Assembly: GCA_964600575.1 (NCBI GenBank)
Contig: CAZRJH010000003.1
Span: 81,640 to 145,639, forward strand
DNA: 64,000 nucleotides
Direction of reading: 5' to 3'
Source: an uncultured Gammaproteobacteria bacterium
GTDB lineage: Bacteria > Patescibacteriota > Microgenomatia > UBA8517
In this document: positions 3,981-24,153 of the stretch, in pieces
Numbering within the stretch: the stretch's first letter is position 1
How the letters are laid out: each line of letters begins with the position of its first letter
Notes under the pieces: model-generated
Seen by the model: the letters and a program-made list of their open reading frames with translations, nothing else
Databases searched by the model: none
Told to the model about the DNA's origin: nothing
Made by a program: the position numbers and the translations under genes

Positions 3981-4820
3981 ATGACATTTGATTTATCAAT
4001 TGTAATAGTAAATTTAAACACCAAAGATCTCACTTTGGGTTGCCTCGAATCAATCAAAAAATATTCCAGCGAAGCAAAAATTGAGGTACTTCTAACAGAC
4101 AACGGGTCAAACGACGGTTCCGTTTCGGCATTCCAACAACTTAAAAAACAAGATTTCTGGAGAGAGAGACTAACTTTAATTTTAAACGACAGTAATACGG
4201 GTTACGCAAAAGCAAACAATCAGGGTTATAAAAAAGCAAAAGGAAAATATATTTTTCTTTTAAATAACGACACTGTTCTTCATAAAAACGCTCTCAAAAA
4301 TTTACTGAAGTTTGCCGAAAAAACCGAGGACGCAGGTGTTGTGGGGTCAAGACTTTTGAATATCGACGGCTCGCTTCAGATGTCTTGTTATCATTTTCCA
4401 ACTTTATCTAATGCCATAAAAGAATATTGGTTTGGTAAAAAAGGGCTCTTTGAGAAGTTTGCCCCCCAAGGGAACAGGCCTGTTTCTGTAGATTCGGTCG
4501 TAGGTGCTGCATTTTTGATAACACCAAAAGCTCAAAAACTTGTAGGCATGCTCGATGAGAGATATTTCGCATATTTCGAGGATATCGATTACTGCAGGCA
4601 AACTTGGAAAAAAGGACTTAGAGTTTACTATTTACCCAACTCCGTAATTACTCATTATCACGGGGCCACTTTTAAAAAGTTAGCAAACGAAGCCGAACGA
4701 TGGAAGAAGCTGATTCCTTCCAGTAAGGTTTATCACGGGTTTTTTATGCACTATATTATTAACTCTGTTTTGTGGGTGGGGCAAAAATGGCAAAAAGTTA
4801 TATCTAAATTCTCTCCATAA
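3981..4820 (+). CDS. GT2-family glycosyltransferase
   Basis: 'LSIVIVNLNTKD', 'LLTDNGSNDGS', 'GYAKANNQG', 'LLNNDTV' and 'FAYFEDIDYCRQ' are GT2 motifs. It abuts the upstream gene. Confidence 0.75.
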   Translation: MTFDLSIVIVNLNTKDLTLGCLESIKKYSSEAKIEVLLTDNGSNDGSVSAFQQLKKQDFWRERLTLILNDSNTGYAKANNQGYKKAKGKYIFLLNNDTVLHKNALKNLLKFAEKTEDAGVVGSRLLNIDGSLQMSCYHFPTLSNAIKEYWFGKKGLFEKFAPQGNRPVSVDSVVGAAFLITPKAQKLVGMLDERYFAYFEDIDYCRQTWKKGLRVYYLPNSVITHYHGATFKKLANEAERWKKLIPSSKVYHGFFMHYIINSVLWVGQKWQKVISKFSP

Positions 4821-6489
4821 ATATATATTCCTCGCTTCCGTCTTTTCGTTTGATCTTTTCGGTAACTTTAGCAGGCAGGCCTGCTTTTATCTGGCTGTCG
4901 TATGCGCAATTGTACGAAACTATTACGAGCAATTTTTTGTCGGAATATTTTGTAAACGCATATTCAGACGGGCATTTATCTTCGGTAAAAACAATGTTTT
5001 GCCAAACTCTTTCGTTGGTGGTTTTTTTATATGTTGATTTATTAAACAATCCCGGCTCTAGTTTGTTGAAAAACGCGTACCAAGGATAGGGGCTGTCGGG
5101 AAAATTTGTAACAACTATTTTGTCATAAGCATCTTTCTTTTCATTTACTTTTTGAACCAAGTCCATCATTCCGGAATTTCTAAATGTAGGGCTATCTACA
5201 AACAGATTCTTGTAAAAAGGTTTGTGATAAAAAGAGTGGCTGTAATACATATGCAAAAAATAAACCAGAAAAACAGCAGTTACAGTAAATAATGAAAAAA
5301 ATACCCACCCTCTTATTTTTTTGTTCAGATTTGTCAAAAAAATTAAACCTTGGGCCTCAATCATTACCAAAAAAGCGGTCATGATAAAGGCCCTGTGTAG
5401 ATTTGGCGAGTCCTCTGCTGTAATAGCTGCCGGTATGGGGGAGAGTAACAAAAATAGCAAAGGCAAAAATGAATTTTTACCTTTTGCTATCTGAGCTAAC
5501 CCTAAAATTAAAAGTAAAATTTCGGCGTAATTAAGAAGTCCTACTCCGGGTGTTGCGTATCTATAGGGTCTGGCATCATAGCCTATTAAAAAACCGGAAC
5601 TAAAATAATTTCCGTAAGACATTGCAACCGCCTTTAAATAAACTGTAACCTTGTTGTCAAAAACTTTAGATGTTAATTTTGGATTTGCGTTTTCATCCCG
5701 AATTCTCTGTAATTCATACGCGGAGTCAATGCTTTTAAGTACAGATACCTGGCTTAATCTGGAAAATCCTCCCGAGGTAGAACTAAAAAATGCCGTAATA
5801 ACAAACACCAAAACTGCAGTAATAATAAATCTTTTAATTAAACCTTTTTTAACAAGTATCTTGTAAAAAAACAAAATGAAACTTACATAAAAAAACGGAG
5901 CCAAAAGTCTCATTGAGTGGTAGAACATGTTTGCCACAAAAATCGAAAACACCGAAAATATTAGATATCTGATTTTTGTCTTTTCCAAAGACAAGAGTAA
6001 TAAATACATAGACAAGACTCCAAAAAAAAGTGATATAGCCGCCTCGCTAGTTGCACGGGAAACTTCGATATGCCATGCTGACACCGCCATAAATATTGCG
6101 GCAAAATTACCCGGTGTTAAACCTAATATTTTTCTATTTTTCTTTTCCAGTTTGTCTAAAAACAGTGAAACTATAATTACGGTTAATGCACCAAAAAAAG
6201 CAGACATAAACCTTGTTGCAAAAATAGTGTTTCCAAATAACAAAACAGAAGGGATCGCTGCTAAAAAAATTCCGGTAGGACGATAATCTCCGAATGAGTC
6301 GTAATAAAGCCCCGGCTTTTGGTTGTGGTCGTCTAAACCGCTTTTGATTATAGAGTAAGCGTTCCAGCCGACTTTGGCTTCATCAACATGGAAACCCCAC
6401 GGGAAATCGGATAGGTAAGCAAGTCTTAAAAGTAGGGCAAAAATAAATATCCAAAATAAGGGTTTTTTGAGTATTTTTTTAATATTCAC
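4804..6489 (-). CDS. GT-C membrane glycosyltransferase, PMT/ArnT-like (GT39/GT83-like); paralog 1 of 7
   Basis: The 561-aa polytopic protein has an N-terminal TM followed by 'HVDEAKVGWNAYSIIKSGLDDHNQKPGLYYDSFGDY', the loop-1 D-E motif characteristic of Dol-P/undecaprenyl-P-sugar-dependent PMT_2/ArnT enzymes. There are many hydrophobic segments and a soluble C-terminal domain. Confidence 0.7.
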   Translation of the reverse strand: MNIKKILKKPLFWIFIFALLLRLAYLSDFPWGFHVDEAKVGWNAYSIIKSGLDDHNQKPGLYYDSFGDYRPTGIFLAAIPSVLLFGNTIFATRFMSAFFGALTVIIVSLFLDKLEKKNRKILGLTPGNFAAIFMAVSAWHIEVSRATSEAAISLFFGVLSMYLLLLSLEKTKIRYLIFSVFSIFVANMFYHSMRLLAPFFYVSFILFFYKILVKKGLIKRFIITAVLVFVITAFFSSTSGGFSRLSQVSVLKSIDSAYELQRIRDENANPKLTSKVFDNKVTVYLKAVAMSYGNYFSSGFLIGYDARPYRYATPGVGLLNYAEILLLILGLAQIAKGKNSFLPLLFLLLSPIPAAITAEDSPNLHRAFIMTAFLVMIEAQGLIFLTNLNKKIRGWVFFSLFTVTAVFLVYFLHMYYSHSFYHKPFYKNLFVDSPTFRNSGMMDLVQKVNEKKDAYDKIVVTNFPDSPYPWYAFFNKLEPGLFNKSTYKKTTNERVWQNIVFTEDKCPSEYAFTKYSDKKLLVIVSYNCAYDSQIKAGLPAKVTEKIKRKDGSEEYIFMERI

Positions 6490-6536
6490 TTTTTGCAGGT
6501 TTGATTTAGCAAGTGGAGTATACAGGAAGGTCTAAA

Positions 6537-6546
6537 ATGATACAAT
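6537..6546 (+). promoter_or_regulatory. Candidate extended -10 promoter element (ATGATACAAT) for the PMT-like gene at 6554
   Basis: The TGn-TACAAT hexamer ends 7 nt before the ATG, implying a leaderless or near-leaderless transcript. It lies in the 64-bp divergent intergenic region 6490..6553. Confidence 0.3.
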
Positions 6547-6553
6547 TCTAATT

Positions 6554-8269
6554 ATGTCGGGCAAGATTAAGAAATATTTTTTAGTCATCATTCTCTTGCT
6601 GGCGTCTTTTTTAAGATTTAATAATCTTTCTTCAAATCCCCCTTCTATGTTTGGTGACGAACTCGACCTGGGATATCATGCTTATTCAATTTTAAAAACA
6701 GGACGGGATTATCAGGGGAACTTTGCTCCTATCAACTTTCATTCGCTGGCGGAATGGCGAACCCCGTTGTATCTTTACTCTGCGGTTCCAAGTGTTTTTA
6801 TCTTTGGCATATCAGCATTGGGTGTAAGGTTGCCCGCGGCTATTTTTGGAGTCCTTGGAGTGTGGGCTATATATCTTCTTTGTAAAAAGTTATTCGATTC
6901 CAAAAACGCTGGGATGATTGCCGCCTTTCTCTTAGCCGTTTCTCCTTGGCATATTCAGTATTCCAGAGCAGGTTTCGAAGTAACGGAAATGCTTTTTTTC
7001 CTTACAATCGGAGTATATTTTTATCTAAAGTCGTTCGATAACTCTAAGTATTTATGGTTGTCTGTTTTGTTTTTGGTTACAACCGCATGGGTTTATTCCA
7101 CAGCCAAACTTTTTACCCCATTTTTTATTTTGTTTCTGTTTGTCATCAATCATAAGGATATACTCAAATTTCCCAAAAACGATTTATTTAAAACTTTGAT
7201 CGTCGGTGCGGTTGTCGGTCTACCGCTCGTTTACGGAATATTTTTCGGGGGAGGGTCTCAGCGATTTAATTATATTAGTGTTTTTGCAGACCCCACAACC
7301 GAACCGGAAATAGGCAGCTCAAGAAGCATAGACTCTTTTGCTAGGGGAGAAACAGGGCTTGCCTTAAAACCCAAATTAATCGATAGGGTAATTCACAATA
7401 AATTTACATACTGGAGTAGTCAGATAATCACGAATTATTTCAAATCTTTTTCGACCCAATTCTTGTTTATAAAAGGCGACCCAAACCCCAGGCAGTCAGT
7501 TGGAGTGGGTGAGCTGTACAAGATAGAAATACTATCCCTAATTTTAGGTATAGTATTTTTCCTAACATCAAAGATTAACGGCAAATTAAAAATATTATTA
7601 TTATTTTGGTTGACGCTTTCACCATTACCCGCGGCTTTAACCAAAGACGGGGGTGATCATGCTACAAGGCTGATACTTATGCTTATTCCACTTACGGCAC
7701 TTTCGGCTTATGGATGGTTCTCTTTGTATTCCAACCTTTCAGGTGTTTTCAAAATAATTTTCGTACCTGTTTTGATAGTTGCCTATATTTTTAGCTTTTT
7801 CTTATATCTACATGAATATTTTGTTCATTATCCGTACTCGAGTGAAAGATGGTGGCATTATGGTTGGGGGCAGGCTCTAGCAGAAGTTAAAAAGATAGAT
7901 TCAAATTATGACAAGGTAATTATTTCTATGGCAGGCGAACCAGCTTGGATATTTTTTGCCGCATATTACCAATACGACCCTGTTAAATGGCAGAACGACT
8001 ATCCAATAGGAAAAGATGTTGAGTTAAAAGGTTTCGGCAATGTCTCCCATATAAATAAATATTATTTTGGAAGTCCTCAGAGTGATGTGCAAATCTACGG
8101 ACTTTCAAAAGTGATAGACGGTAAAACAATTTACCTGGCCAACGCTAAAGAAGTGGGTGAGAACTTAATAATAAATCCCGACAAAACCCCTTCGGGCCTC
8201 CGTTTGATAAAAGCAATTCCGTTTTTAACGGGTGAGCCGGCTTTCTACCTTTTTGACATAAAAAATTGA
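6554..8269 (+). CDS. GT-C membrane glycosyltransferase, PMT/ArnT-like; paralog 2
   Basis: 'FGDELDLGYHAYSILKTGRDYQGNFAPINFHSLAEW' is the same N-terminal D-E loop motif. The protein is 571 aa and polytopic. Confidence 0.7.
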   Translation: MSGKIKKYFLVIILLLASFLRFNNLSSNPPSMFGDELDLGYHAYSILKTGRDYQGNFAPINFHSLAEWRTPLYLYSAVPSVFIFGISALGVRLPAAIFGVLGVWAIYLLCKKLFDSKNAGMIAAFLLAVSPWHIQYSRAGFEVTEMLFFLTIGVYFYLKSFDNSKYLWLSVLFLVTTAWVYSTAKLFTPFFILFLFVINHKDILKFPKNDLFKTLIVGAVVGLPLVYGIFFGGGSQRFNYISVFADPTTEPEIGSSRSIDSFARGETGLALKPKLIDRVIHNKFTYWSSQIITNYFKSFSTQFLFIKGDPNPRQSVGVGELYKIEILSLILGIVFFLTSKINGKLKILLLFWLTLSPLPAALTKDGGDHATRLILMLIPLTALSAYGWFSLYSNLSGVFKIIFVPVLIVAYIFSFFLYLHEYFVHYPYSSERWWHYGWGQALAEVKKIDSNYDKVIISMAGEPAWIFFAAYYQYDPVKWQNDYPIGKDVELKGFGNVSHINKYYFGSPQSDVQIYGLSKVIDGKTIYLANAKEVGENLIINPDKTPSGLRLIKAIPFLTGEPAFYLFDIKN

Positions 8270-8293
8270 AATTATATGCCATCAATAATGTAA

Positions 8294-8320
8294 TTTTTCG
8301 TTGCCTCGCAACGTAAAAGA
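8294..8320. terminator. Candidate bidirectional intrinsic terminator between convergent genes
   Basis: The inverted repeat CGTTGC-ctc-GCAACG (8299..8313) is flanked by TTTTT (8294..8298) on one side and TAAAAGA on the other. It lies in the 51-bp gap between the 3' ends of 6554..8269 (+) and 8321..10006 (-). Confidence 0.45.
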
Positions 8321-10006
8321 TTAAATAGTCTTTCTTTTACTCATTACCGCCTCCCATTCCGGATTAGTTTTAACAATTCTGTAAGCGACCGTTCCGTCGG
8401 GGTATCTTATTTCTTTTATTAATTCTAGTTTATGAACTTTTATTTGATCCAAAGATATACCCAGCTCATCGGCGACCAAATACTCATCTTTGGTTAGGTC
8501 GGTCTTCCATTCAATTGGCCTTGTAACAAAACGACCTATGTGTTTTTGGGTGTTTCGTTTTAAATTCGTATAATATTCCGAATTTTCTACCTCAAAATTT
8601 TCTTTTTGATAAAGTTCGGGCGGATATTTTAAATAGAAAGCAATTTGTAAGTCGGGGTCGCTTCTGGCGTTATCAACAACTACGGGCAAATCGTCTTTGA
8701 TTTCCGAGATCGTTTTTACTACCTCCTGCCAACCCCAGTCCCAATATCTGGCCCTATAAAATTCGTTCAGAATAATTACCGAGCTGTAAAGTTTGAATAA
8801 CGATAAAACAAAAAGTCCGGCCAAAATAGAGCAAAAAAATATTTTTTGTAAGTTATTTTTAGTTAGTTTATAAACACCCAATATGCCGTAAGCAATAATA
8901 ATTAATTGGGGAACAACCAAAGGAAGTGCTCTAATTGTAGTATAAGGGTCGCGTGTTACGGCCGCTGGTATCGGGGAAACAAATAGTACTAAAAGTACTA
9001 AAAATTTAAAATCTGATGCTTTCTCTCTGATAATTCTCCAAAGCCCGTAAATATAAAAAGGAAACTGCCACAAAAAGAATGTAGAAAGCTCAGGGAAAGA
9101 ACTTCTCGGGCCGTAATCTCCAAGAACAAACATAAATCTAGGTGACAAATAAGAAAAATATAAACCCAAAAACTCCCTTGTAGACAAAAACCAGGAGCCG
9201 TTCACAAGCGGCCCTAATACCCCTTTATAAAAATCCAGAAATCCGTCCGGCATCTGTCTGGAATGCGAAAAAATATTTAACCCGCTTGCTCTGGCCAAAA
9301 AACCCGGTGTCCCCATAACGTTAATTGTCGGAAGACTAACTACAAATCCTATTAGCAGACCCCATACAAAATAAACAACTCTGTCTTTGTTAAGAATTAT
9401 TTTTTTGTATCTTATTAAAAGTAAAAGCATAGTAAGTGGAGTGATTATTCTTTGAGAGTGGTAAGCCGGGATAGCTATTGCAAATAAAAACGCGGACAAC
9501 AGAAGAAATTTTGGTTTTTCCAGGCTTTTGTAAAAAGTTAAGATTCCGCTTAAATAAAAAAACAATGCGACATTGCACTCAAAGTTGGTCCTCCCAAAAA
9601 GTATATGCCACGGAGATATTGCTAAAAGAAAAATACTAATAAGGGATAGCCCTACCGATCCCGTGAGTCTTTTTATTAACAAATAAAGGATGGGGAGGGT
9701 GGCTATGCTAAAAATAAAAGACGGAAGTCTTACTGTAAATGGGCTGAGTCCAAATACGGGTATCAATGGGGTAATTAAATATATGTAAACTGGAGTTTTA
9801 AAGTCGGTTAAAGATCTAAAAACTACAGGGAGTTCTTTACCAAATTCATCTTTCCCCGTTTTTAATATTGAATAAGCACTGTAACCCTGGCCAGCCTCGT
9901 CAACATAAAAGCCTTTAGGGGCATCTCCAAGCATAAATAACCGGGTTAGTACGGCAAGCGCAAGTGCGCAAACAATTAACAAGTGCTTAGAATAAGTTTT
10001 CAACAT
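8321..10006 (-). CDS. GT-C membrane glycosyltransferase, PMT/ArnT-like; paralog 3
   Basis: 'FYVDEAGQGYSAYSILKTGKDEFGKELPVVFRSLTDF' is the D-E loop motif. The protein is 561 aa and polytopic. Confidence 0.7.
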   Translation of the reverse strand: MLKTYSKHLLIVCALALAVLTRLFMLGDAPKGFYVDEAGQGYSAYSILKTGKDEFGKELPVVFRSLTDFKTPVYIYLITPLIPVFGLSPFTVRLPSFIFSIATLPILYLLIKRLTGSVGLSLISIFLLAISPWHILFGRTNFECNVALFFYLSGILTFYKSLEKPKFLLLSAFLFAIAIPAYHSQRIITPLTMLLLLIRYKKIILNKDRVVYFVWGLLIGFVVSLPTINVMGTPGFLARASGLNIFSHSRQMPDGFLDFYKGVLGPLVNGSWFLSTREFLGLYFSYLSPRFMFVLGDYGPRSSFPELSTFFLWQFPFYIYGLWRIIREKASDFKFLVLLVLFVSPIPAAVTRDPYTTIRALPLVVPQLIIIAYGILGVYKLTKNNLQKIFFCSILAGLFVLSLFKLYSSVIILNEFYRARYWDWGWQEVVKTISEIKDDLPVVVDNARSDPDLQIAFYLKYPPELYQKENFEVENSEYYTNLKRNTQKHIGRFVTRPIEWKTDLTKDEYLVADELGISLDQIKVHKLELIKEIRYPDGTVAYRIVKTNPEWEAVMSKRKTI

Positions 10007-10808
10007 AGCTTCTTAAAAATTCCGGGATTGAAAAGATAATAAGAACATAGGCAAACATTTTGTATAACTTGTTGTTAAGAACCTCTAGTGTATTTATGCC
10101 GTGATAGATAATAAGGCTTATGGGCAGATAAAGGATAAAATCGTTTCGATCAAAATTTTTCAAAATCATTAGGCAGATTATCGAAGATGTAAATAAAGTA
10201 AGAGTAAAGTTTTTTTGGCGAAAATTTTTAAGATAGTAAACGCCTATAAAAAAGAACACAAGTGAAACAAACGGGTATTTGTACAAATTTTGATTATCTA
10301 CACTGATCGGTCTGGGGTGCAAGGCAAAAAAGTAATTGTTTGGATCGGTCAATGTAAAAAAGTTACCGACTGCTTTATCGTAGTAAATCTTACCTTTGTT
10401 TTGAAACACTCTAGCCAGTAGCGGGTTTGGATACAAATGTATATTTCTTATCACCAATTGCTGGGCTTCGTAGTCTTTTGTAAAAATTGTTTGTCCAAAA
10501 AAAGGTTTAAAAAAAGCGACAAATATGGCTAAACTTATAAATAACGGAAGTAATAATTTTAAAGATCTTAGCCTTAAAATTTCTATGCAGAAATAAATAA
10601 CTGGAATCAATGTTAACTTTGGGGAAAATAAACCTATCAAAAGCAAAGGCAGATAATAATAGTCTGATTTTTTGAGATGGAGGACATAAGAAATTCCTGT
10701 CAAAACCAAAGGGACTGTATAGTTGAGAAAATCACCCGGGGTGTTGTTTAAATACAAATTAAGCGGCCATAGTCCAAAGACGGCAATAAGAATAATCTTT
10801 TTGAGCAT
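9987..10808 (-). CDS. Integral membrane protein of unknown function, co-transcribed upstream of PMT-like paralog 3
   Basis: The 273-aa protein is very hydrophobic (about 7-8 predicted TM segments) and has no D-E loop motif. It overlaps the start of 8321..10006 by 20 nt on the same strand. Confidence 0.4.
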   Translation of the reverse strand: MLKKIILIAVFGLWPLNLYLNNTPGDFLNYTVPLVLTGISYVLHLKKSDYYYLPLLLIGLFSPKLTLIPVIYFCIEILRLRSLKLLLPLFISLAIFVAFFKPFFGQTIFTKDYEAQQLVIRNIHLYPNPLLARVFQNKGKIYYDKAVGNFFTLTDPNNYFFALHPRPISVDNQNLYKYPFVSLVFFFIGVYYLKNFRQKNFTLTLFTSSIICLMILKNFDRNDFILYLPISLIIYHGINTLEVLNNKLYKMFAYVLIIFSIPEFLRSYVENLF

Positions 10809-10818
10809 ATATGGCTTG

Positions 10819-10828
10819 ATGATACAAT
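10819..10828 (+). promoter_or_regulatory. Candidate extended -10 promoter element (ATGATACAAT) for the PMT-like gene at 10843
   Basis: The 10-mer is identical to the one at 6537..6546. It lies in the 34-bp divergent gap, and an AGGA sits 5-8 nt upstream of the ATG. Confidence 0.3.
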
Positions 10829-10842
10829 CATATAGGAAAATA

Positions 10843-12495
10843 ATGAAGATTTTAGGTTTAAATTCGGAAAAAACAGTTCTGATACTGATACTTTTGCTTG
10901 CCTTTGTCGTCAGATTTTTTTCTTTAACTAAATTTCCGGTCGGTTTTAATGCAGACGAGGCCTCTTTTGGTTACGATGCTCACTCGATAATTCGCACCGG
11001 TAGAGATCAGTGGGGATCTGTGCCGGTGGTCTTAAAGTCCTTCGGAGATTACAAGTCTCCTGTCTATGCATACATAATCGCTCCTTTTGTTTTTGTGGGC
11101 GGATTAAATAGTTTTGCTGTCAGGCTCCCTAATGTAATTGTGGGAACATTGGCCGTATTTATTTTATATCTATTATTTAGAGAACTTTTTCCCGACAAAA
11201 AAAAGGAAGCGATTGTTTCAGCATTTCTTTTGGCCCTAAGCCCTTGGTCTGTGATGATGAGTAGGGGAGCATTTGAAGCCAATCTTGTTACGCTTTTTAT
11301 CCCCTTAGGTATATACCTTTTTCTTAAATCTCAAAAAAACACCAAATATGCCCTTTACTCATTTTTTATCTTCGGTTTAAGTCTTTTTACTTACCACTCC
11401 GCAAAAATTACTACCCCGCTTACTATTTTGTTCTTGGTAGTAATTTACTTTAAAGATGTTTCCAAAAATCTAAAACATTACATTTTACCTGTCTTTGTTT
11501 TTTCTTTGTTTGTTTTAGCCATGCTCTACACTCTTAAGATTGGAGGAGGGGCCAGAATTTCGGAAAGAAGTATTACAAGAGGTGCTTTGGAAGAGGGTGC
11601 AAAAGCTAAGATTGAATTAATCCAAAACGGCGTCAATCCAAACATCGCCAGATTTTTCCATAATAAATATCAAGTAGTTTTTTCCAGATTCACCTCTAAC
11701 TATTTACAATATTTTTCATATAAATTTTACTTGTCTAAAGGAGCCGGTGAATCTTACTACGGTATGAGACCCGGTATAGGTGTCCTTAGTCTGGTGGAGT
11801 TTATACTTTTTGTTTCTTCTTTAGTGTATTTTTACAAATTTGGCATCAAGGGAGGGGTGCTTTTTGTATTTCTCTGGCTATTAATCTCACCTCTCCCCGC
11901 CGCTTTGTCCACGGGTGTCGGGTATTCCGGTCATAGAGCCGAAACAATGATCCCCGTCCTACAAATTGTACAAGGGCTGGGACTAGCAGGTATTGCAAGC
12001 TTACTAAAAAAGACAAAAGTAAACTATGTTTCCGGGTTATATCTGGCGGTCTTTTTATCTAGTCTTGTTTTCTTTTCGATCTTCTGGAAAAGTTACACAA
12101 CCAATATTCCTTCGTCTTCGTTTAAAGAAATGCTATACGGTAATTTAGAGGTCTTTGATTGGCTTAACAACAATAAAGGAGACAAACAGGTATTCGTGAG
12201 TCGTAGCCTTAGCGAACCGCAAATATTTATCGGATTTTTGGGAATGGAACCTACGATATATCAAAACTATTCAAAAAGTTGGGATTTAAAGTCGGCGAAT
12301 GTGATGTGGGTAGATCAGCTCCCAGAATATGGCATCGAAAATTATAAAATAAAATCTATCGATTGGAAAAATGATACCAAGAACAAGAATATAATGATTG
12401 TAGCTAAAGCAGACGAGTTTCCCAAAGATGTTTTGCCCGATAAAATTTTTAGCTATCCCGACGGAACGGCCAATGTTTTTGTTAAAAAGTATTGA
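10843..12495 (+). CDS. GT-C membrane glycosyltransferase, PMT/ArnT-like; paralog 4
   Basis: The start is taken at ATG 10843 (MKILGLNSEK), because the ORF-track start 10723 would overlap the divergent gene. 'FNADEASFGYDAHSIIRTGRDQWGSVPVVLKSFGDY' is the D-E loop motif. Confidence 0.7.
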   Translation: MKILGLNSEKTVLILILLLAFVVRFFSLTKFPVGFNADEASFGYDAHSIIRTGRDQWGSVPVVLKSFGDYKSPVYAYIIAPFVFVGGLNSFAVRLPNVIVGTLAVFILYLLFRELFPDKKKEAIVSAFLLALSPWSVMMSRGAFEANLVTLFIPLGIYLFLKSQKNTKYALYSFFIFGLSLFTYHSAKITTPLTILFLVVIYFKDVSKNLKHYILPVFVFSLFVLAMLYTLKIGGGARISERSITRGALEEGAKAKIELIQNGVNPNIARFFHNKYQVVFSRFTSNYLQYFSYKFYLSKGAGESYYGMRPGIGVLSLVEFILFVSSLVYFYKFGIKGGVLFVFLWLLISPLPAALSTGVGYSGHRAETMIPVLQIVQGLGLAGIASLLKKTKVNYVSGLYLAVFLSSLVFFSIFWKSYTTNIPSSSFKEMLYGNLEVFDWLNNNKGDKQVFVSRSLSEPQIFIGFLGMEPTIYQNYSKSWDLKSANVMWVDQLPEYGIENYKIKSIDWKNDTKNKNIMIVAKADEFPKDVLPDKIFSYPDGTANVFVKKY

Positions 12496-12503
12496 ACACC
12501 CAT

Positions 12504-14168
12504 ATGTTAAAGGTGATTAAAGAATTTAAATACAAGCACATTATTTTGCTTCTAATCCTTAGTATTTTCACTTTTTGGAGAATGCTTAAGCCGGGTATGT
12601 ACTCCACCCAGGATTTCCATTTATTTAGACTTTACGAGTTTGATAAATGTGTAAAAAGTCTAGAAATACCTTGCAGATGGGCACCCGATGCTGGCCTTGG
12701 TTACGGTCAGCCGATTTTTAACTACTACGGTCAGTTTGCATACGCTTTAGGTGAAATATTCAATTTGGCTGGTTTTGGAACAATTAATTCTATGAAATTA
12801 CTTTTTATTCTTTCTTTAGCAGGCTCCGCTATTTTTATGTTTTACTTAGCCAAAAGAGTTTGGAAAAACGATATGGTTGCCTTACTTTCCTCTGTTTTAT
12901 ATCTTTTTGCCCCGTATCGATCGGTGGATGTTTGGGTTAGGGGAGCGCTTCCGGAATCATTTGCATTTGTATTTTACCCGCTGATTTTTTTGACGATTTT
13001 TAACTACTTCGAAACAAAAAAGAATCTGCATTTGTACTATTTTAGCCTTACACTTTTTTTGTTAATCATCACTCACAATTTGTCTGTCATTCTGTTTTTG
13101 CCGGCTTTAATAATGTGGAGTTTGGTTATCGCATTAAGAAAGGGTTATAAAAAGTCCGACATTTTAAGGCTGTGCACAGCCTCTTTGCTTTCTTTGCTGT
13201 TGTCATCTTTTTATTTGTTACCCTTAGTTTTTGAATCTAGATTTGTCAATTTAGCCTCTACTACACAAGGGTATTTTGACTTTCATAACCATTTTGCCAC
13301 ACTTAAACAACTATTCTTATCTAATTATTGGGGTTACGGGGCTTCTAATTGGGGTGACGGCGACGGTTTAAGTATGGCCGTTGGATATTTTCAGTGGATT
13401 TTGCCTTTGATTCTGATTCCTTTGGCTTTATTTAATAATAAATTTGTAAAAGCCGGTAAAGATAAATATTTATTTTTTTCTTTGGTGGCCACAGGAATAT
13501 TTTATTTATTGTTGACACATAATAAATCAACTTTTATTTGGGAAAAACTTCCATTTATGGCGTTTATACAATTTCCCTGGAGATTTCTGGGTCCTGCAAT
13601 CTTTTGTCTTTCCCTGGCGGTTGGTGTTGTAGGAAATATCTTTTCTAAGAAAACCTATTTGATTTTGGCTATCGTGCCGGTTGTTGTGGCTGTCAATTTC
13701 GGTTTTTTTAGAGAAGATATTTGGTATAAAGTTAAAGATAGTCATTATACGACTGGAGAAGAATGGATACGCCAACGGTCGGCATCCATAGGGGATTATC
13801 TGCCTGTAGGTGCGGCCCTTCCGCTAAACCCACCCGAGGCTTTTATGGGTAATTTTAGATATGAAGAAATGAAGTCGAACTACTATCTTTACAATATAGA
13901 AATCCAAGGCGGAGACTCGGGGAGTGTTACTCTCCCGGTCACTTATTTTCCGGGTTGGACAGGTAAAATTAACGGTAGTGCTGTCGGTGTAAATCCCGAT
14001 AAGGAAACAGGCAACATTAGCCTTAATCTCCCAAAAGGGCTAAATAAAGTAGAGCTGTTTTTTACGAACACTCCCGTAAGATGGATTGGCAACTTTATGT
14101 CTTTGTTTGCTTTTGTTTATCTCGGCTCAGTACTCTGGAAAGAAAAATATGGAAATAAAAATAGTTAA
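12504..14168 (+). CDS. Polytopic membrane protein, GT-C-like but atypical (no D-E loop motif; YfhO-like C-terminal beta-rich domain)
   Basis: About 12 hydrophobic segments are followed by a C-terminal '...TYFPGWTGKINGSAVGVNPDKETGNISLNLPKGLNKVELFF' domain reminiscent of YfhO-type and other GT-C C-termini. It sits inside the PMT-like array. The start is placed at ATG 12504; the family assignment is uncertain. Confidence 0.4.
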   Translation: MLKVIKEFKYKHIILLLILSIFTFWRMLKPGMYSTQDFHLFRLYEFDKCVKSLEIPCRWAPDAGLGYGQPIFNYYGQFAYALGEIFNLAGFGTINSMKLLFILSLAGSAIFMFYLAKRVWKNDMVALLSSVLYLFAPYRSVDVWVRGALPESFAFVFYPLIFLTIFNYFETKKNLHLYYFSLTLFLLIITHNLSVILFLPALIMWSLVIALRKGYKKSDILRLCTASLLSLLLSSFYLLPLVFESRFVNLASTTQGYFDFHNHFATLKQLFLSNYWGYGASNWGDGDGLSMAVGYFQWILPLILIPLALFNNKFVKAGKDKYLFFSLVATGIFYLLLTHNKSTFIWEKLPFMAFIQFPWRFLGPAIFCLSLAVGVVGNIFSKKTYLILAIVPVVVAVNFGFFREDIWYKVKDSHYTTGEEWIRQRSASIGDYLPVGAALPLNPPEAFMGNFRYEEMKSNYYLYNIEIQGGDSGSVTLPVTYFPGWTGKINGSAVGVNPDKETGNISLNLPKGLNKVELFFTNTPVRWIGNFMSLFAFVYLGSVLWKEKYGNKNS

Positions 14169-15855
14169 ATACTTGTTTTTGGTTATTTTAATCGGGACGT
14201 GTTTACGATTTGCCTATTTAACATATGTTCCTGCTTCTTTGAATTGGGACGAAGTTAGTCACGGTTATAATGCATACTCTTTGCTTAAAACAGGAAAAGA
14301 TCAATGGGGTCAACCTTGGCCGATATTTAACTTTAGAGCCTACGGCGACTACCCTACTGTACTTAACTTATATCTGACAATACCCTTTATATACTTGTTG
14401 GGATTAACCGATTTTGCCGTAAGAGCGCCTCATGCGATATTAGGGATACTTACTATACTTATGGCTTATTTTGCAGGAATCGGTCTAACTAAAAGGAGGA
14501 GTGTTGGGCTTGTAAGCGCATTTTTGGTTGCTTTTGGTCCCTGGTACATTTTTACTTCCAGATTTGTTCTTCAATCAAATCTTTCAGTTTTTCTTATAGC
14601 TTCAGCATTGGCGGCCTTTTTTAACAGAGATAAGCATAAGTATTTATTGCCACTTTCGTTTTTTCTTATTTTTTTGACGCTTTTTTCGTATCACACAACC
14701 AGAATATTTTCTCCGCTTGTAGTTTTGGCTTACATGGCAGTATATTCCAACGAAATATTAGATAGAGTTAGACAAAAAAAACTAATGTTTGCTTCGACAG
14801 TTGGAACAATCCTGGTATTTTTTATAACGGCCGGATACATATTGGGAACAAGTGATGCAAAAGCCAGAGGTTCGGTGCTTTTTATACTTGACCAGGGAGC
14901 GGTGAACAAAATTGAGAGCCTCCGAAACTCATCAAAATTTTCTCCTTTGGTAACAAAACTAATTTACAACAGACCGGTCTATTTTGTCGAGAGATTTGCT
15001 CAGAATTATGCAACTTATTTTTCTCCAGGGTTTTTATTTTTTAGCGGAGGGACACAATACCAGTTTAGCCTTCCAGGCCACGGTCTAATCCTTCTAGTCA
15101 ACCTGCCGTTTTTTTACTACGGTTTATATTTGTTAATCAGAAAAGCGTTTGATAATAAAGATTTTCTGATGGTGCTTTTAATGATTATTCTTTATCCGAT
15201 ACCGGCAAGTCTAACTAATGAGTCTTTTGCGGTTTTGCGTGCAACCACCTTACTTCCACTGTCAGAAATAGTAATCGCCTTGGCAATATTTACCTTTTAT
15301 CAAAAGTTACCGATAAAAATTAAACCTTACTTTGCGACTACTTACCTGGTTATAGTTTACTTCTTGTTGGAAGGTTTTTTGTTAAATTATTTTACTTCGT
15401 ATCGAACAAATTATTCTTGGAGCTGGCAGTATGGTTATTCAGAGGTGTCGGAGTATGTTAAATCCAACTACGATAAATATGACAAGATAGTGGTAACAAA
15501 AAAATACGGCGAGCCGCATGAATTTTTGCTGTTTAATCTAAAATGGGATCCGGATAGGTACCAAAATGACAAAACAGCTATCAGGTTCTTTCAGTCGGGG
15601 TGGTATTGGGTGGACAGCTTCGACAAATTCTACTTTGTTAACGATTGGCAGGTTGTAGACGAGTCTAAGGCAAATAAACATTTTATTTTAGAAAGCAAAA
15701 ACATAGTTGAGTGCATAGATGTTAAGTGTCTTTTGGTAACATCACCCGACAACGCCCCTTCAGGCTGGAGTAAAATAAAAGATATTAAATTCTTGGACGG
15801 TAAAACCGCCTTTAGTTTTTATGACAACAGTCGCTATGGCAATAAGAGCAAATAA
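14149..15855 (+). CDS. GT-C membrane glycosyltransferase, PMT/ArnT-like; paralog 5
   Basis: The start is at ATG 14149 (MEIKIVKYLF). 'LNWDEVSHGYNAYSLLKTGKDQWGQPWPIFNFRAYGDY' is the D-E loop motif. It overlaps the upstream gene by 20 nt. Confidence 0.7.
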   Translation: MEIKIVKYLFLVILIGTCLRFAYLTYVPASLNWDEVSHGYNAYSLLKTGKDQWGQPWPIFNFRAYGDYPTVLNLYLTIPFIYLLGLTDFAVRAPHAILGILTILMAYFAGIGLTKRRSVGLVSAFLVAFGPWYIFTSRFVLQSNLSVFLIASALAAFFNRDKHKYLLPLSFFLIFLTLFSYHTTRIFSPLVVLAYMAVYSNEILDRVRQKKLMFASTVGTILVFFITAGYILGTSDAKARGSVLFILDQGAVNKIESLRNSSKFSPLVTKLIYNRPVYFVERFAQNYATYFSPGFLFFSGGTQYQFSLPGHGLILLVNLPFFYYGLYLLIRKAFDNKDFLMVLLMIILYPIPASLTNESFAVLRATTLLPLSEIVIALAIFTFYQKLPIKIKPYFATTYLVIVYFLLEGFLLNYFTSYRTNYSWSWQYGYSEVSEYVKSNYDKYDKIVVTKKYGEPHEFLLFNLKWDPDRYQNDKTAIRFFQSGWYWVDSFDKFYFVNDWQVVDESKANKHFILESKNIVECIDVKCLLVTSPDNAPSGWSKIKDIKFLDGKTAFSFYDNSRYGNKSK

Positions 15856-17491
15856 ATATATTCTCGCAGTTATTGTACTTTTTGCAGCAGTATTTCGTTT
15901 GTGGAACTTGGGGTCCATCCCCCCCGGGCTAACACCGGACGAAGCCGCACTCGGTTACAACGCATACTCAATATTGCAAACAGGCAATGATGAGTATGGT
16001 GAAGTACTCCCTTTAATATTTAAGTCATTTGGAGACTATAAACCGGGTTTTTATGTATATACGGCCATACCTTTTGTCGCGATCTTGGGTTTATCCGAGT
16101 TCTCGGTTAGGTTGCCTTCTGTTGTTGCGGGTTTATTTACGGTTATTTCGATTTATCTAATTCTTAAAATTCTCTTTAAAAACGAACAAATAGGATTAGC
16201 AGGAGCATTTGCTGCAGCGGTTAATCCTTGGTTGATTTATTTTTCCAGAGGAGCTTGGGAGGCAAATTTATCTTTGGCGTTTACTCTTTTAGGAATTTTA
16301 TTCTTTCTTAAATCATTGGAAAAAGAAAAGAGTTTGCTCATAAGTGCCGCTTTTTTTGGTTTAACACTTATCACATACCAAGGGGCTAAAATCTCGACTT
16401 TGATTGTTGTTCTTATTCTTGCGGTTCTTTATAAATCAGAAATTTTAAAATTCAGAAAAGTAAATATCTTCTTATCACTTTTGATAGGTATTGTTTTTCT
16501 TATACCCGTTATATTCACTTTTTTAAACGGGCAAACATTTAGATTAAATATTTACAGTATATTTTCTTACAGAAGACCTGACACTGAGATTCAAAACATC
16601 AAAAATCAGGAGTTGTCTAATACGGAACTTAACTTTTTAGTATTTCACACGGAAAAAGTTAATTATGTTAGGGCTATTTTGGGTAGATATTTTAACAATT
16701 TTTCGGGTAGGTTTTTGTTTTTTGACGGTGATTGGGCAAATCCTGTTTCTACGCCGCCCTACCAGGGAGTACTACTCCTTTCGGATTTAATTTTATTACC
16801 TATCGGTTTTTACTTTTTACTAAAAAGCAAGGAAAATAAATCCAAGAACTTCATTTTTTTGTGGTTACTTATGGCTCCGATATCGGTGGCTCTTTCCAGA
16901 GACGAACTTAATGCGGTTAGAGATCTAAATTTAGCCGTTCCTCTTGTTGTGGTGTCGTCCTTTGGTGTTTACGGTTTACTTTCGAACAAAATAAAAAAAG
17001 TAAACCTATTTGGTGCTGTTTTGTGTGTTTTATCTATAGGGAGTGCTTTCTTATATTTTGCGGACGCTTATTACATTCACACACCGGCTCATAATTCTCA
17101 ATATTTTAGATATGGATATAAACAGGTTTTTGAGTTTGTAGAGCCTATCAGAGAAAAGTATAGCAAAGTAGTTTTTGAACAATCATTCAACCAACCTTAT
17201 ATTTATTACTTGTTTTATGGCTCTAAAGACCCCGGCATTTATCAGACCCAAGAAAAACTATCAGATAGCGAGTTTAAGGGGGATGTGGGGTATATCACAT
17301 CTCTTGATAATATAAGTTTCGAACGATTGGATTGGCAGGTCATTAAAAATAGCCATAATGTGTTAGTCGTTGCAGCACACACATCCGTTCCGCCCGAAGT
17401 TTTTGCCTACAAGGATAAATATGTTTTGCTAAATCAAATAAAATATCTTAACGGAAGAGATGTGGCTTTCGACATTTTCGAAATAAAATGA
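15821..17491 (+). CDS. GT-C membrane glycosyltransferase, PMT/ArnT-like; paralog 6
   Basis: 'LTPDEAALGYNAYSILQTGNDEYGEVLPLIFKSFGDY' is the D-E loop motif. An alternative start is at 15836 (MAIRAN). Confidence 0.7.
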   Translation: MTTVAMAIRANKYILAVIVLFAAVFRLWNLGSIPPGLTPDEAALGYNAYSILQTGNDEYGEVLPLIFKSFGDYKPGFYVYTAIPFVAILGLSEFSVRLPSVVAGLFTVISIYLILKILFKNEQIGLAGAFAAAVNPWLIYFSRGAWEANLSLAFTLLGILFFLKSLEKEKSLLISAAFFGLTLITYQGAKISTLIVVLILAVLYKSEILKFRKVNIFLSLLIGIVFLIPVIFTFLNGQTFRLNIYSIFSYRRPDTEIQNIKNQELSNTELNFLVFHTEKVNYVRAILGRYFNNFSGRFLFFDGDWANPVSTPPYQGVLLLSDLILLPIGFYFLLKSKENKSKNFIFLWLLMAPISVALSRDELNAVRDLNLAVPLVVVSSFGVYGLLSNKIKKVNLFGAVLCVLSIGSAFLYFADAYYIHTPAHNSQYFRYGYKQVFEFVEPIREKYSKVVFEQSFNQPYIYYLFYGSKDPGIYQTQEKLSDSEFKGDVGYITSLDNISFERLDWQVIKNSHNVLVVAAHTSVPPEVFAYKDKYVLLNQIKYLNGRDVAFDIFEIK

Positions 17492-19140
17492 AAAAAATAT
17501 CTTTTGAATTAAAAGTTTTGACTTTAGTCTTAGCTTTGGCGTTCATTCTGCGCTTTTTTAACTTGTCAAATTATCCCGCATTTAACGCCGACGAAGCGGC
17601 GATCGGCTACAACGCTTATTCATTAATACTTACCGGATTAGATGAACACGGACATACCTGGCCAGTCCATTTCCAGTCTTTTAATGATTGGAAACCTGGT
17701 ATGTATTTCTACCTTGTTATTCCTTTTGTTAAATTATTGGGGTTAAACGAACTTGCGGTCAGAATCCCGAACGCGGCTCTGGGAGTACTAACAGTTTATT
17801 TTGTGTATTTATTGTCTAATTTAATTTTTGACGCAAGAAAAATAAATTTAGGCAAATATACAGTTGAAATAGGGTTTGTGTCATCTTTGTTTCTTGCAAT
17901 ATCTCCTTGGCATATTCACTTTTCAAGGGGTGGTTGGGAAGTTGGTACTGCTACTTTTTTTATGACTTCTGGTTTTTATTATTTCCTCCGATCGGTAAAA
18001 AATAATCTTTCGTTAAAACCAATGCTTGTTTCAGTGTTTTTGCTGGTTATGTCGTTTTACACATATCATGCAGCAAGAGTTATTGTTCCCCTGCTTACAG
18101 TCGTAGGTATTTTGATATACAAAAACGATATTTTTTCAAAAATAAATATTAAAAATATTGTTTATGTTATTCTGTTCGGATTTGTCCTTATTCTCCCTTT
18201 AACAAAAGATTTAATATCGGGCGATGCCTTGTCCAGAGCAGCGGGGGTGGGTCTTTTTGCCGACAAAGGACCCATCAACAGAATTAACGAGCAGCGCGGA
18301 GAACATCAAAATGTTTCGGGGATCTTTACTAGGGTAGAACATAACAAAGCTGTAAATTATGCCTTGGCTTTTCTGCGAAACTGGTCAATGCATTATCAGG
18401 GGGAATTTTTGTTTATGACGGGGGACGGCATTCAAAGAAACAAGGTACCCGAAACAGGACAAATGTATCTTGCGGATATTGTTTTTCTGGCATTGGGTTT
18501 GATATTGCTAACCACTTTGCTTAAGAAAGAGACAGTGTTTTTGCTTTCGTGGCTTATCATTGCTCCAGTAGCCGCCGCCCTCACTTTTCAGGCGCCACAT
18601 GCACTTAGAGCAGAAAATATGGTTATTCCATTGGTTTTAATTAGCTCCTTGGGCTTTTTTAGTTTGTTAGAAAAGAAAAACAGATATTTTATTATCCTGA
18701 CTTCAATTTTTCTTGTGTGGTGTTTTGTCAGATATTTGCATATGTATTATATTCACATGAGTAAAGACTTTCCTTATTCTTCTCAATATGGGCTAAAGGA
18801 ATTATCGGAATATATAATTACAAATCAAGATAAATATAAAGACATAGTGGTTACGGATAGATATGATCAGCCTTATATTCTTTTTCTTTTTTATTCAAAA
18901 TATACTCCAAAGCTTTTTCAATTCAAACATTCGCTTAGTTCGAGAGATGACTTTGGCTTTTCTACCGTAAGAGATTTTGATAAATATCACTTTGTAAGTA
19001 TCGATTTTGAGTCGATTAAAAATAACTACCCGCAAAGCTTGATAGTCGGTACAAAGGATGAAATTCCTAAAGAGGCAAATGTTATTAAGAAAATCTACGG
19101 TACAAACGGTTTTGAATATTTTAATTTAGTAGCAAACTAA
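17488..19140 (+). CDS. GT-C membrane glycosyltransferase, PMT/ArnT-like; paralog 7
   Basis: 'FNADEAAIGYNAYSLILTGLDEHGHTWPVHFQSFNDW' is the D-E loop motif. There is an ATGA overlap with the upstream gene. Confidence 0.7.
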   Translation: MKKISFELKVLTLVLALAFILRFFNLSNYPAFNADEAAIGYNAYSLILTGLDEHGHTWPVHFQSFNDWKPGMYFYLVIPFVKLLGLNELAVRIPNAALGVLTVYFVYLLSNLIFDARKINLGKYTVEIGFVSSLFLAISPWHIHFSRGGWEVGTATFFMTSGFYYFLRSVKNNLSLKPMLVSVFLLVMSFYTYHAARVIVPLLTVVGILIYKNDIFSKINIKNIVYVILFGFVLILPLTKDLISGDALSRAAGVGLFADKGPINRINEQRGEHQNVSGIFTRVEHNKAVNYALAFLRNWSMHYQGEFLFMTGDGIQRNKVPETGQMYLADIVFLALGLILLTTLLKKETVFLLSWLIIAPVAAALTFQAPHALRAENMVIPLVLISSLGFFSLLEKKNRYFIILTSIFLVWCFVRYLHMYYIHMSKDFPYSSQYGLKELSEYIITNQDKYKDIVVTDRYDQPYILFLFYSKYTPKLFQFKHSLSSRDDFGFSTVRDFDKYHFVSIDFESIKNNYPQSLIVGTKDEIPKEANVIKKIYGTNGFEYFNLVAN

Positions 19141-22181: not shown

Positions 22182-22186
22182 CTCAT

Positions 22187-23820: not shown

Positions 23821-24153
23821 ATGATAATAGGAATACAAATAATAGGCATACTTTTCAGTTTTTCGATGGTTTATTTTGCCGTTCTCCACTACAAACGCTC
23901 AGAAATATCTAAAACCGAAATATTCACATGGCTTTTGATATGGTCGTTTGCGATAGTTGTTATTATATTCCCCGAAATATTAAGAGGTTTCTCGAACGCA
24001 TTTTTGGTAACCAGGGTTTTCGACCTTATGGTTATCGGCGGATTTGTCGTAAGTTTATCCTTAGTTGCAACTTCTTACGTTAAAACAAAAAAATTGGAAA
24101 AGAAAATTGAAGATTGGGTTAGAAAAGACGCTCTCAGTTCTAGGAAAAAGTGA
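23821..24153 (+). CDS. Small 3-4-TM membrane protein; possible GtrA/DUF2304-like partner of the adjacent Dpm1-like synthase
   Basis: The 110-aa protein has three clear hydrophobic helices and a basic C-terminus. Its position immediately downstream of the Dpm1-like GT2 mirrors GtrB-GtrA and Ppm1-accessory arrangements. Confidence 0.35.
   Translation: MIIGIQIIGILFSFSMVYFAVLHYKRSEISKTEIFTWLLIWSFAIVVIIFPEILRGFSNAFLVTRVFDLMVIGGFVVSLSLVATSYVKTKKLEKKIEDWVRKDALSSRKK

Follow-up and report, generated by a model that had tools for sequence, protein, structure and literature searches.

Organization of the array

The 64,000-nt stretch analyzed here, called as a whole the window (contig CAZRJH010000003.1, positions 81,640 to 145,639), carries towards its left end a cluster of genes for large polytopic membrane proteins of the glycosyltransferase (GT) class known as GT-C. 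Seven full-length paralogs, named G1 to G7, are accompanied by a 273-amino-acid open reading frame (ORF), S273, and by a further GT-C protein of another type (Table 1); related loci in other genomes are designated by L and a number. All nine ORFs are present where an earlier note on this DNA had placed them, and with the starts used in that note they match the genes called in public records of two contigs, one from NCBI (145,977 bp) and one from Logan (67,775 bp). The paralogs had been described as 550–590 amino acids long; with these starts they are of 550–571 amino acids, and 589–590 is reached only by the longest ORFs. For G2, the start at 6554 is that of the NCBI call and of the earlier note (571 amino acids), versus 6647 in the Logan call (540 amino acids, without the first transmembrane (TM) helix, TM1). 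The family alignment supports 6554, which is needed for TM1.

G1 to G7 align over their full length with 24–33% pairwise identity, and a profile built from the seven gives each of them a score of 620–730 bits, far above chance. The loop motif previously reported after TM1 is found in all seven, as D-E-[ALV]-x-x-G-[YW]-x-A-[YH]-S-[IL]-[IL]-x-[TS]-G-x-D, while the F-G-D-Y motif reported with it is exact in only three, reads Y-G-D-Y in a fourth, and takes the general form [FLY]-x-[DE]-[YWF].

Because G1, G3, and S273 lie on the minus strand, the genes of the array do not all run the same way. From G4 to G7 and onward they share one direction, and their stop and start codons abut or overlap. Operons were defined by such overlaps and not by a promoter/terminator scan; in the window, promoters (64 versus 57.5 ± 7.6 in shuffled sequence) were not above expectation. 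The tRNA and Rfam scans of the 64-kb window gave no matches.

Family assignment and fold

The Pfam check confirmed a placement among PMT-like proteins: PMT_2 (PF13231) matched G2, G3, G4, and G6 above its threshold of 26.1 bits, and PMT (PF02366) matched G5. G1 (PMT_2, 23.5 bits) and G7 (24.6 bits) fall just under the threshold, yet both are full-length homologs of the other paralogs. The loop had also been read as a signature of GT39/GT83 enzymes, and here the Pfam family stands while strict membership of GT39 or GT83 does not. Neither MIR nor PMT_4TMC was found in any paralog (Pfam, E ≤ 0.01), nor did any ArnT model of NCBIfam match one (E ≤ 0.01), and for lack of these domains and of any ArnT sequence signature we do not file the paralogs in either family. 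GT39 membership was thus rejected on the first ground, and a role like that of ArnT in lipid A modification was not adopted on the second. CPR (candidate phyla radiation) bacteria are generally reported to lack lipopolysaccharide, so that lipid A is implausible as an acceptor.

The only NCBIfam families with any similarity to the paralogs are archaeal Agl23 (TIGR03663) and the LA_3751/LA_3752 family of Leptospira, the latter two being adjacent paralogs as well. All of these matches are far below threshold (23–60 bits versus cut-offs of 126–200), and the window proteins are not members of either family. Sequence membership in the mycobacterial families GT87 (PimE, MptA/B) and GT53 (Emb/Aft) was not found. 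HMMER searches of the solved GT-C structures, including the ArnT chains, with a 48-sequence profile or with G2 alone gave no match (E ≤ 10), and the link to solved GT-Cs is visible by fold comparison only.

An AlphaFold2 model of G6, made from 48 homologs (predicted local distance difference test, pLDDT, 89.9; predicted template-modeling score, pTM, 0.91), has ArnT and ALG12 as its best structural matches; AftD, AftA, AftB, EmbA, and PimE also match, as do the Pmt1-Pmt2 (6p25) and EmbA-EmbB (7bvf) structures. The model has the polytopic fold with the N-terminal TM module common to ArnT, STT3, PMT, and ALG proteins, and a conserved acidic residue lies in the first extracytoplasmic loop. Judging from this model, G1 to G7 are GT-C_A-fold enzymes, nearest in shape to ArnT. 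The likeness to ArnT (GT83; Cupriavidus metallidurans, 5EZM/5F15) is one of fold only, with 12% identity and ~11 TM helices versus 13 in ArnT. The GT39 proteins Pmt1/2/4 and bacterial Pmt resemble the window paralogs in the PMT/PMT_2 signatures, the D-E dipeptide of the first loop, and the ~11 TM helices. Unlike them, the window paralogs lack the PMT_4TMC module as well as a MIR domain in their large outer loop, and they carry a different C-terminal outer domain; the Foldseek alignment to Pmt1/2 spans only ~260 N-terminal columns.

Among 1.84 billion representatives searched, the family comprises 6,130 clusters (50% identity) at E ≤ 1e-30 and 40,287 at E ≤ 1e-3. Public records already label individual genes "glycosyltransferase family 39" or "ArnT family."

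Membrane topology and conserved residues

Each paralog has ~11 TM helices with the N-terminus inside, according to the helices of the model and the hydrophobicity profile. The parts of G6 placed outside are residues 28–92 (the first outer loop, EL1, which holds D40 and E41), the large outer loop EL4 (237–315), and a C-terminal alpha/beta domain (421–556), and the parts placed inside include the K-rich loops 336–344 and 389–396. Over 48 sequences, the density of K plus R is 0.31 in the predicted cytoplasmic loops versus 0.10 in the predicted outer loops, which satisfies the positive-inside rule. The D-E loop is thus predicted to be extracytoplasmic, as the earlier note had supposed, and not cytoplasmic, a placement which that note had set as a refutation. 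ArnT and PMT have the same membrane orientation.

In 324 family members, D40, E41, D57, R97, R143, Y186, R241, R367, and some Gly and Pro residues are near-invariant (98–99% for D40, E41, and D57), and every one of them falls within a predicted outer loop or at the outer end of a helix. EL1 is the region best conserved between paralogs (46% identity). The ratio of identity within orthogroups to that between them is 1.97 for EL4 and 1.88 for the C-terminal domain, versus 1.35 for EL1. A common EL1 with paralog-specific EL4 and C-terminal outer domain fits a shared chemistry on different acceptors. The proposal that the paralogs differ in specificity is in this way supported indirectly, in that each has its own deep orthogroup (see below) and the acceptor-side regions are paralog-specific.

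The same residues bear on the reading that these proteins are not transferases at all, and instead handle lipid-linked sugars or accompany a flippase, as the name "flippase activity-associated protein Agl23" would have it. TIGR03663 is indeed the top NCBIfam match for five of the seven paralogs. These matches, however, reach 31–60 bits versus a cut-off of 126, and the invariant acidic residues of EL1 are retained together with the full GT-C catalytic architecture, so we regard this reading as extremely improbable.

Conservation and age of the array

The window comes from a member of the Microgenomates, a CPR group. A scan of species-representative genomes with G6 gave 374 relatives, of which 80 loci, with flanks of ±10 kb, were kept for all locus counts given here. 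These loci belong to Woese-, Shapiro-, Ames-, and Daviesbacteria or to metagenome-assembled genomes (MAGs) with evidently wrong bulk labels, and close homologs of the array are labeled Woesebacteria or Patescibacteria. MAGs titled uncultured Gammaproteobacteria (SRP..._co/binchicken: L003, L005, L006, L008, L009, and ~30 more) and one titled Clostridia bacterium carry a Microgenomates-type operon that is fully syntenic and 40–66% identical. Such titles are almost certainly bulk labels given in error.

In each of the 80 loci, 2–7 members of the family, most often 5, are found within ±10 kb. The members form one-to-one orthogroups, with 38–66% identity to the ortholog versus 24–33% to paralogs and clear margins, and their order is fixed as G2, (G3), G4, a gap of one gene, G5, G6, and G7. 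In the wider conserved order, the YfhO-like gene stands between G4 and G5, and G7 is followed by GT2a, GT4a, and M381. Orthologs of G2 were found in 42, of G4 in 55, of G5 in 76, and of G7 in 79 of the 80 loci, and the triad G5-G6-G7 in 76–80. In a neighbor-joining tree, the seven groups were monophyletic in 93–100% of 30 bootstraps.

The array had been described as a tandem expansion. This view is not upheld: orthologs are closer than paralogs, and the DNA repeats among paralogs are limited to 40–50-nt patches that encode conserved motifs, so the duplications predate the split of the candidate phyla and with it the Microgenomates radiation. Recent local duplication was rejected on the same grounds (24–33% identity between paralogs, 38–66% to orthologs elsewhere, motif-only repeats), and no compositional anomaly was seen. 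By these sequence comparisons the array is an ancient operon and not a local expansion.

G1, G3, and S273 are patchily distributed among the loci. An ortholog of G1, the most divergent paralog, occupies the same position in L003 (45% identity), while a metagenome scan with G1 found only two relatives and is uninformative on its conservation. Minus-strand orthologs of G3 (55–71% identity) are present together with S273 in L003, L008, and L010. Extra family members in some loci (L005, L015, L016, L029, L031, L034, L037–L039, L057, etc.) show 26–33% identity with a BLAST margin of <20 bits; as they have no clear counterpart among the window paralogs, more than seven orthogroups must exist across Microgenomates.

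S273 had been listed as a small membrane protein embedded in the array. A membrane ORF is indeed there, but it is a truncated member of the GT-C family and not an unrelated protein. It has no Pfam match, yet HHalign aligns it to the family with a probability of 97% (E 3.7e-11) over 257 columns (family columns 175–466). It retains the EL4 motif and the middle and distal TM helices, without TM1 and the D-E loop, and it is kept in four other genomes (41–51% identity), in three of them beside a minus-strand G3 ortholog. On this evidence S273 is a maintained, catalytically truncated paralog, which may act as a non-catalytic partner subunit.

Such a subunit belongs to the wider reading that coupled paralogs (above all G5-G6-G7, and G3 with S273) form hetero-oligomeric GT-C complexes, some of whose subunits mainly bind or position the acceptor. 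The triad is found in nearly every locus with a median overlap of 4 nt at both the G5/G6 and the G6/G7 junctions (gap ≤10 nt in 57 of 73 and 64 of 74 loci), a paralog without the catalytic loop is kept beside G3, and Pmt1-Pmt2 and EmbA-EmbB are solved heteromers. In addition, a review has speculated that acceptor recognition by small GT-C enzymes may depend on a second protein (PMC8035078). Against this, all seven full-length paralogs retain D40, E41, D57, R143, and the other invariant residues, so that none of them looks like a pseudoenzyme, and coupling in an operon is equally expected for sequential enzymes. We judge hetero-oligomers of this kind to be unlikely; they are compatible both with the outer-face glycan assembly that we favor and with protein O-glycosylation of the Pmt type, both of which are weighed below.

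Partner genes and putative donor supply

The gene at 12504–14168, previously noted as an eighth, atypical GT-C, proved to be just that: it has a Pfam signature of the YfhO/PTPS_related type (PF09586 or PF10131) and the GT-C fold. Downstream of G7 follow the genes of two cytoplasmic enzymes, GT2a and GT4a, and of a 7-TM protein, M381. The window copy of M381 has no Pfam match; many of its homologs (45–55% identity) match PF04188 (Mannosyl_trans2) or PMT_2 and bear the annotation "Gpi18-like mannosyltransferase."

Beyond M381 lies a GT2 protein that is a candidate polyprenyl-phosphate-sugar synthase, with NCBIfam matches to AglJ (96 bits), PpgS (94 bits, positions 3–214 of 226), and dolichyl-phosphate hexose transferase (56 bits), all below cut-off. 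It is directly followed by a small membrane protein of the DUF2304 family, and the pair is kept in six loci. In streptococci, GacJ, a DUF2304 protein, activates the undecaprenyl-phosphate-GlcNAc synthase GacI, and another, Rv3632, is co-transcribed with PpgS, the mycobacterial polyprenyl-phospho-GalNAc synthase, and stimulates it (10.1101/180810). The products of GacI/GacJ and PpgS/Rv3632 are consumed by the GT-C enzymes GacL and Rv3779 (10.1101/180810; PMC8035078). By analogy with these pairs, the GT2 and DUF2304 proteins of the window are likely a polyprenyl-phosphate-sugar synthase module. A second candidate synthase is the minus-strand GT2 protein at 27038–28162 (NCBIfam: AglJ 101 bits, dolichyl-phosphate hexose transferase 47 bits, neither reaching its cut-off). 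The window has a gene like that of GDP-L-fucose synthase (Fcl), but no GDP-mannose 4,6-dehydratase was detected in it.

Table 1. Genes of the array, its partners, and the surrounding island, with coordinates in the window.
Gene or product	Position	Strand	Length (aa)	Assignment and supporting scores
G1	4804–6489	-	561	GT-C paralog, most divergent of the seven; family profile 623 bits; D-E loop present
G2	6554–8269	+	571	GT-C paralog; PMT_2 44.1 bits, PMT 33 bits
G3	8321–10006	-	561	GT-C paralog; PMT_2 40.2 bits
S273	9987–10808	-	273	N-terminally truncated family member; 20-nt overlap with G3
G4	10843–12495	+	550	GT-C paralog; PMT_2 53.5 bits
YfhO/PTPS_related-type GT-C	12504–14168	+	554	C-terminal beta-sandwich, then terminal TM helix
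G5	14149–15855	+	568	GT-C paralog, core triad; PMT (PF02366) 26.6 bits versus threshold 22.7
G6	15821–17491	+	556	GT-C paralog, core triad; modeled protein; PMT_2 50.1 bits
G7	17488–19140	+	550	GT-C paralog, core triad; ATGA overlap with G6; family profile 725 bits
GT2a	19143–20012	+		Cytoplasmic GT2 directly after G7; Glycos_transf_2 72 bits; 72/80 loci
GT4a	20021–21061	+		Cytoplasmic GT4; Glycos_transf_1 81 bits; 65/80 loci
M381	21036–22181	+		7-TM protein, Gpi18/PIG-V-like GT-C; 40/80 loci
GDP-L-fucose-synthase-like epimerase/reductase	22169–23125	+		Epimerase 183 bits; NCBIfam Fcl 294 bits versus cut-off 500
PpgS/GacI/AglJ-like GT2	23122–23781	+	219	Candidate polyprenyl-phosphate-sugar synthase
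DUF2304 small membrane protein	23821–24153	+		PF10066 69 bits; GacJ/Rv3632-type
M485	24930–26387	+		GT-C-like membrane protein; HHalign probability 94%, E 1.7e-7; PMT_2 19 bits, sub-threshold
Second AglJ/DPM-like GT2	27038–28162	-		Candidate polyprenyl-phosphate-hexose synthase
Distant PMT_2 GT-C	37312–38976	+	554	D-S instead of D-E; PMT_2 39 bits; HHalign 97%
Wzx	42941–44236
GT-C-like membrane protein	45164–46531	+		HHalign 95%; adjacent to the next
GT-C-like membrane protein	46528–47790	+		HHalign 87%; PMT_2 22 bits
PMT_2 GT-C without C-terminal domain	49680–51008	+	442	PMT_2 33 bits; family profile 39 bits; HHalign 99%
PMT_2 GT-C	56666–58147	+	493	PMT_2 42.7 bits; HHalign 96%
Mannose-1-phosphate guanylyltransferase (ManC)	62495–63613	+		NTP_transferase 109 bits, ManC beta-helix; GMP_PMI 276 bits versus cut-off 373

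The whole 64-kb window is a glycan-biosynthesis island. It holds ~16 GT-C-type genes in all, ~20 GT2/GT4 genes, six S-adenosylmethionine-dependent methyltransferases, a hexapeptide acetyltransferase, a UDP-GlcNAc 2-epimerase, Wzx, and Wzy_C.

An island rich in GT2/GT4 enzymes and methyltransferases, with an acetyltransferase, is typical of variable surface-glycan loci. The array enzymes might then be largely interchangeable accessory decoration enzymes, as in serotype conversion of the Gtr/Csd kind, which diversify the surface against phage or host. The patchy occurrence of G1, G3, and S273 and the extra unassigned paralogs of some loci would suit this reading. G2, G4, G5, G6, and G7, however, are one-to-one and in fixed order across several candidate phyla, which is the opposite of a variable locus, and neither recent duplication nor a compositional anomaly is seen. 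We therefore hold variable decoration to be very unlikely.

Proposed assembly of a surface glycoconjugate

We lean, by a modest degree, to the reading that G1 to G7 are non-redundant outer-face GT-Cs that use polyprenyl-phosphate sugars, each taking its own step (its own acceptor or linkage) in the making or decoration of a surface glycoconjugate conserved in Microgenomates. This glycoconjugate would most probably be a glycan anchored to a lipid or to the wall, and not any one particular protein. Of the readings considered, that of outer-face transferases with one chemistry and probably common donors, but with different acceptors or linkages, is the best supported. The analysis itself establishes the fold and family of the proteins, the bias in their topology, the conserved charged residues (acidic and basic) of the outer side, orthogroups of great age, conserved synteny, translational coupling, and a donor-synthase module encoded nearby; from these we infer what type of donor is used, that the specificities are distinct, that the enzymes act in sequence, and what kind of acceptor they serve.

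In such a pathway, a primer would be built by GT4 and GT2 enzymes of the cytoplasm, namely GT4a, GT2a, and others encoded in the island. The PpgS/GacI-like GT2 with its DUF2304 partner, and the second, AglJ-like GT2, would load monosaccharides onto polyprenyl phosphate, and the lipid-linked sugars would be flipped across the membrane. G2, G4, the YfhO-like protein, G5, G6, G7, and the Gpi18-like GT-C would then transfer the sugars outside. We propose stepwise assembly or decoration of a glycan on the outer face because of the GT2, GT4, YfhO-like, and Gpi18-like partners, the PpgS-like protein with DUF2304, the presence of Wzx with Wzy_C, and structural matches that use lipid or glycan acceptors. 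The ManC gene, for GDP-mannose, and the Fcl-like gene count for it as sugar supply within the island.

Several points weigh against this proposal. We know of no biochemical or glycan-structure data for any Microgenomates organism. The topology rests on charge bias and homology rather than on a dedicated predictor or coordinates, the neighbor-joining test is rough and partly circular, since the orthogroups were pre-defined by BLAST margin, and with flanks of 10 kb the loci counted for G1, G3, and M381 are restricted in number. The assignments of the GT2 proteins as synthases are below curated cut-offs, and ~16 GT-C genes stand against no more than two candidate donor synthases. In the window, neither a GtrA-type flippase nor an initiating phosphoglycosyltransferase was found.

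The same membrane architecture could belong to Pmt-type protein O-glycosyltransferases, each with its own secreted or surface proteins (S-layer, pilins, adhesins) as substrates, to whose Ser/Thr residues it would transfer a monosaccharide from a polyprenyl-phosphate sugar during or after export. The Pfam matches to PMT and PMT_2, the number of TM helices (~11, as in PMTs), and the D-E dipeptide after TM1, which is a hallmark of PMTs, all agree with this, and there are bacterial precedents. One GT39 enzyme glycosylates the secreted cellulases of Caldicellulosiruptor (C. bescii; PMC6151902), and in the Pgf system a GT2 protein and two GT-C proteins modify adhesins (10.1101/2022.10.10.511621). 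The paralogs of the window, on the other hand, have neither the MIR domain nor the PMT_4TMC module, and ArnT and ALG12, the best structural matches, act on lipid or glycan acceptors. They share an operon with GT2, GT4, YfhO-like, and Gpi18-like proteins, in a polysaccharide-type island with Wzx and Wzy_C, and a set of five to seven different protein O-transferases would be without precedent. Protein O-glycosylation therefore seems to us rather unlikely.

Comparison with known systems

For outer-face glycan assembly, which we favor, the closest parallels in design come from two groups of bacteria. Expanded outer-face glycosylation systems had been called poorly characterized outside Actinobacteria; outer-face GT-C systems have been characterized in Firmicutes too (PMC8035078). 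In CsbB/GtcA/YfhO, GacI/GacJ/GacK/GacL, and Csd, a GT-A synthase (with a DUF2304 helper in some), a flippase, and an outer GT-C of the PMT_2/YfhO type act together (PMC8035078; PMC5836110; 10.1101/180810). The window has counterparts of this logic in the PpgS/GacI-like GT2 with DUF2304, Wzx, the YfhO-like GT-C, and the PMT_2 GT-Cs. Of the parts of such multi-component systems, GT-C, DUF2304 (69 bits), a PpgS/AglJ-like GT2 below cut-off, and Wzx were thus found in the window, and no GtrA-family protein was detected there. The Firmicutes systems have one GT-A per GT-C, and Bacillus subtilis and Lactococcus lactis have three dispersed pairs each (PMC8035078). Unlike these pairs, the window has its 5–7 GT-C paralogs in one conserved operon, without individual GT-A partners.

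The mycobacterial and corynebacterial enzymes for lipomannan, lipoarabinomannan, and arabinogalactan (PimE, MptA/B/C, EmbCAB, AftA-D) are similar in that many GT-Cs share few polyprenyl-phosphate donors and act sequentially outside after cytoplasmic GT4 priming, as proposed here for the window. The mycobacterial pair of PpgS and DUF2304 protein (Rv3632) parallels the pair of the window as well. The embCAB genes are a tandem array of three GT-C paralogs whose products form homo- and heterodimers, and they are the nearest precedent for a tandem arrangement. The heteromeric pairs of paralogs in GT39 Pmt are a precedent for association of this kind.

Full-text searches of the literature for GT-C arrays in CPR bacteria or Microgenomates found no paper describing such a system; in papers on Saccharibacteria and Peregrinibacteria, the only mannosyltransferases mentioned are cytoplasmic or of the DPM type. 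The system as such, an operon of 5–7 GT-C paralogs that is syntenic and translationally coupled and has fixed partners across Microgenomates, thus appears to be undescribed, and the evidence suggests that it serves as an assembly line that builds a surface glycan on the outer face.

CPR bacteria (Patescibacteria) make up a large share of bacterial diversity, and their envelope chemistry is essentially unknown since almost none have been cultured. Glycan assembly takes up at least 64 kb here, which would be several percent of a CPR genome of ~1 Mb (related complete genomes are of 0.6–0.9 Mb). The fixed order of five to seven non-redundant outer-face GT-Cs is older than the split between Woese-, Shapiro-, Ames-, and Daviesbacteria, and from such conservation it follows that the glycoconjugate is important for fitness. 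The operon is a genomic marker for the lineage, and G5, G6, and G7, with their invariant D40, E41, R143, and R367, are orthology-defined targets for heterologous biochemistry and structural work. The design of many GT-Cs with few lipid donors, known from mycobacteria, would be extended to a very distant clade.

A bolder proposal, which we regard as doubtful, is that the conserved operon is the biosynthetic core of an envelope polymer that defines the Microgenomates lineage, a lipoglycan or wall glycan polymerized and branched wholly outside from polyprenyl-phosphate sugars, with G5-G6-G7 as a physical, heteromeric assembly line. If true, this would be the first extracytoplasmic GT-C pathway in the style of lipomannan/arabinan assembly outside Actinobacteria, and a candidate for what determines the way in which these cells, ultra-small and probably dependent on hosts, construct and display their surface.

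Other genes of the island

The remaining GT-C-like proteins of the island gave HHalign probabilities of 87–99% against the family, with the Wzx and Wzy_C controls at 0.2–0.5%. The distant PMT_2 GT-C at 37312–38976 is 17% identical to G1. It is followed by a 695-amino-acid protein (38982–41069, plus strand) in which a GT4 domain (Glycos_transf_1, 129 bits) is fused to a GT2 domain with one C-terminal TM segment; from this domain arrangement, a bifunctional polymerizing transferase is possible. Among the methyltransferases sits a 390-amino-acid protein (34574–35746, plus strand) with weak alpha/alpha-toroid matches (Pec_lyase 31 bits; Prenyltrans and SQHop_cyclase_C sub-threshold) and no obvious role in a glycan locus.

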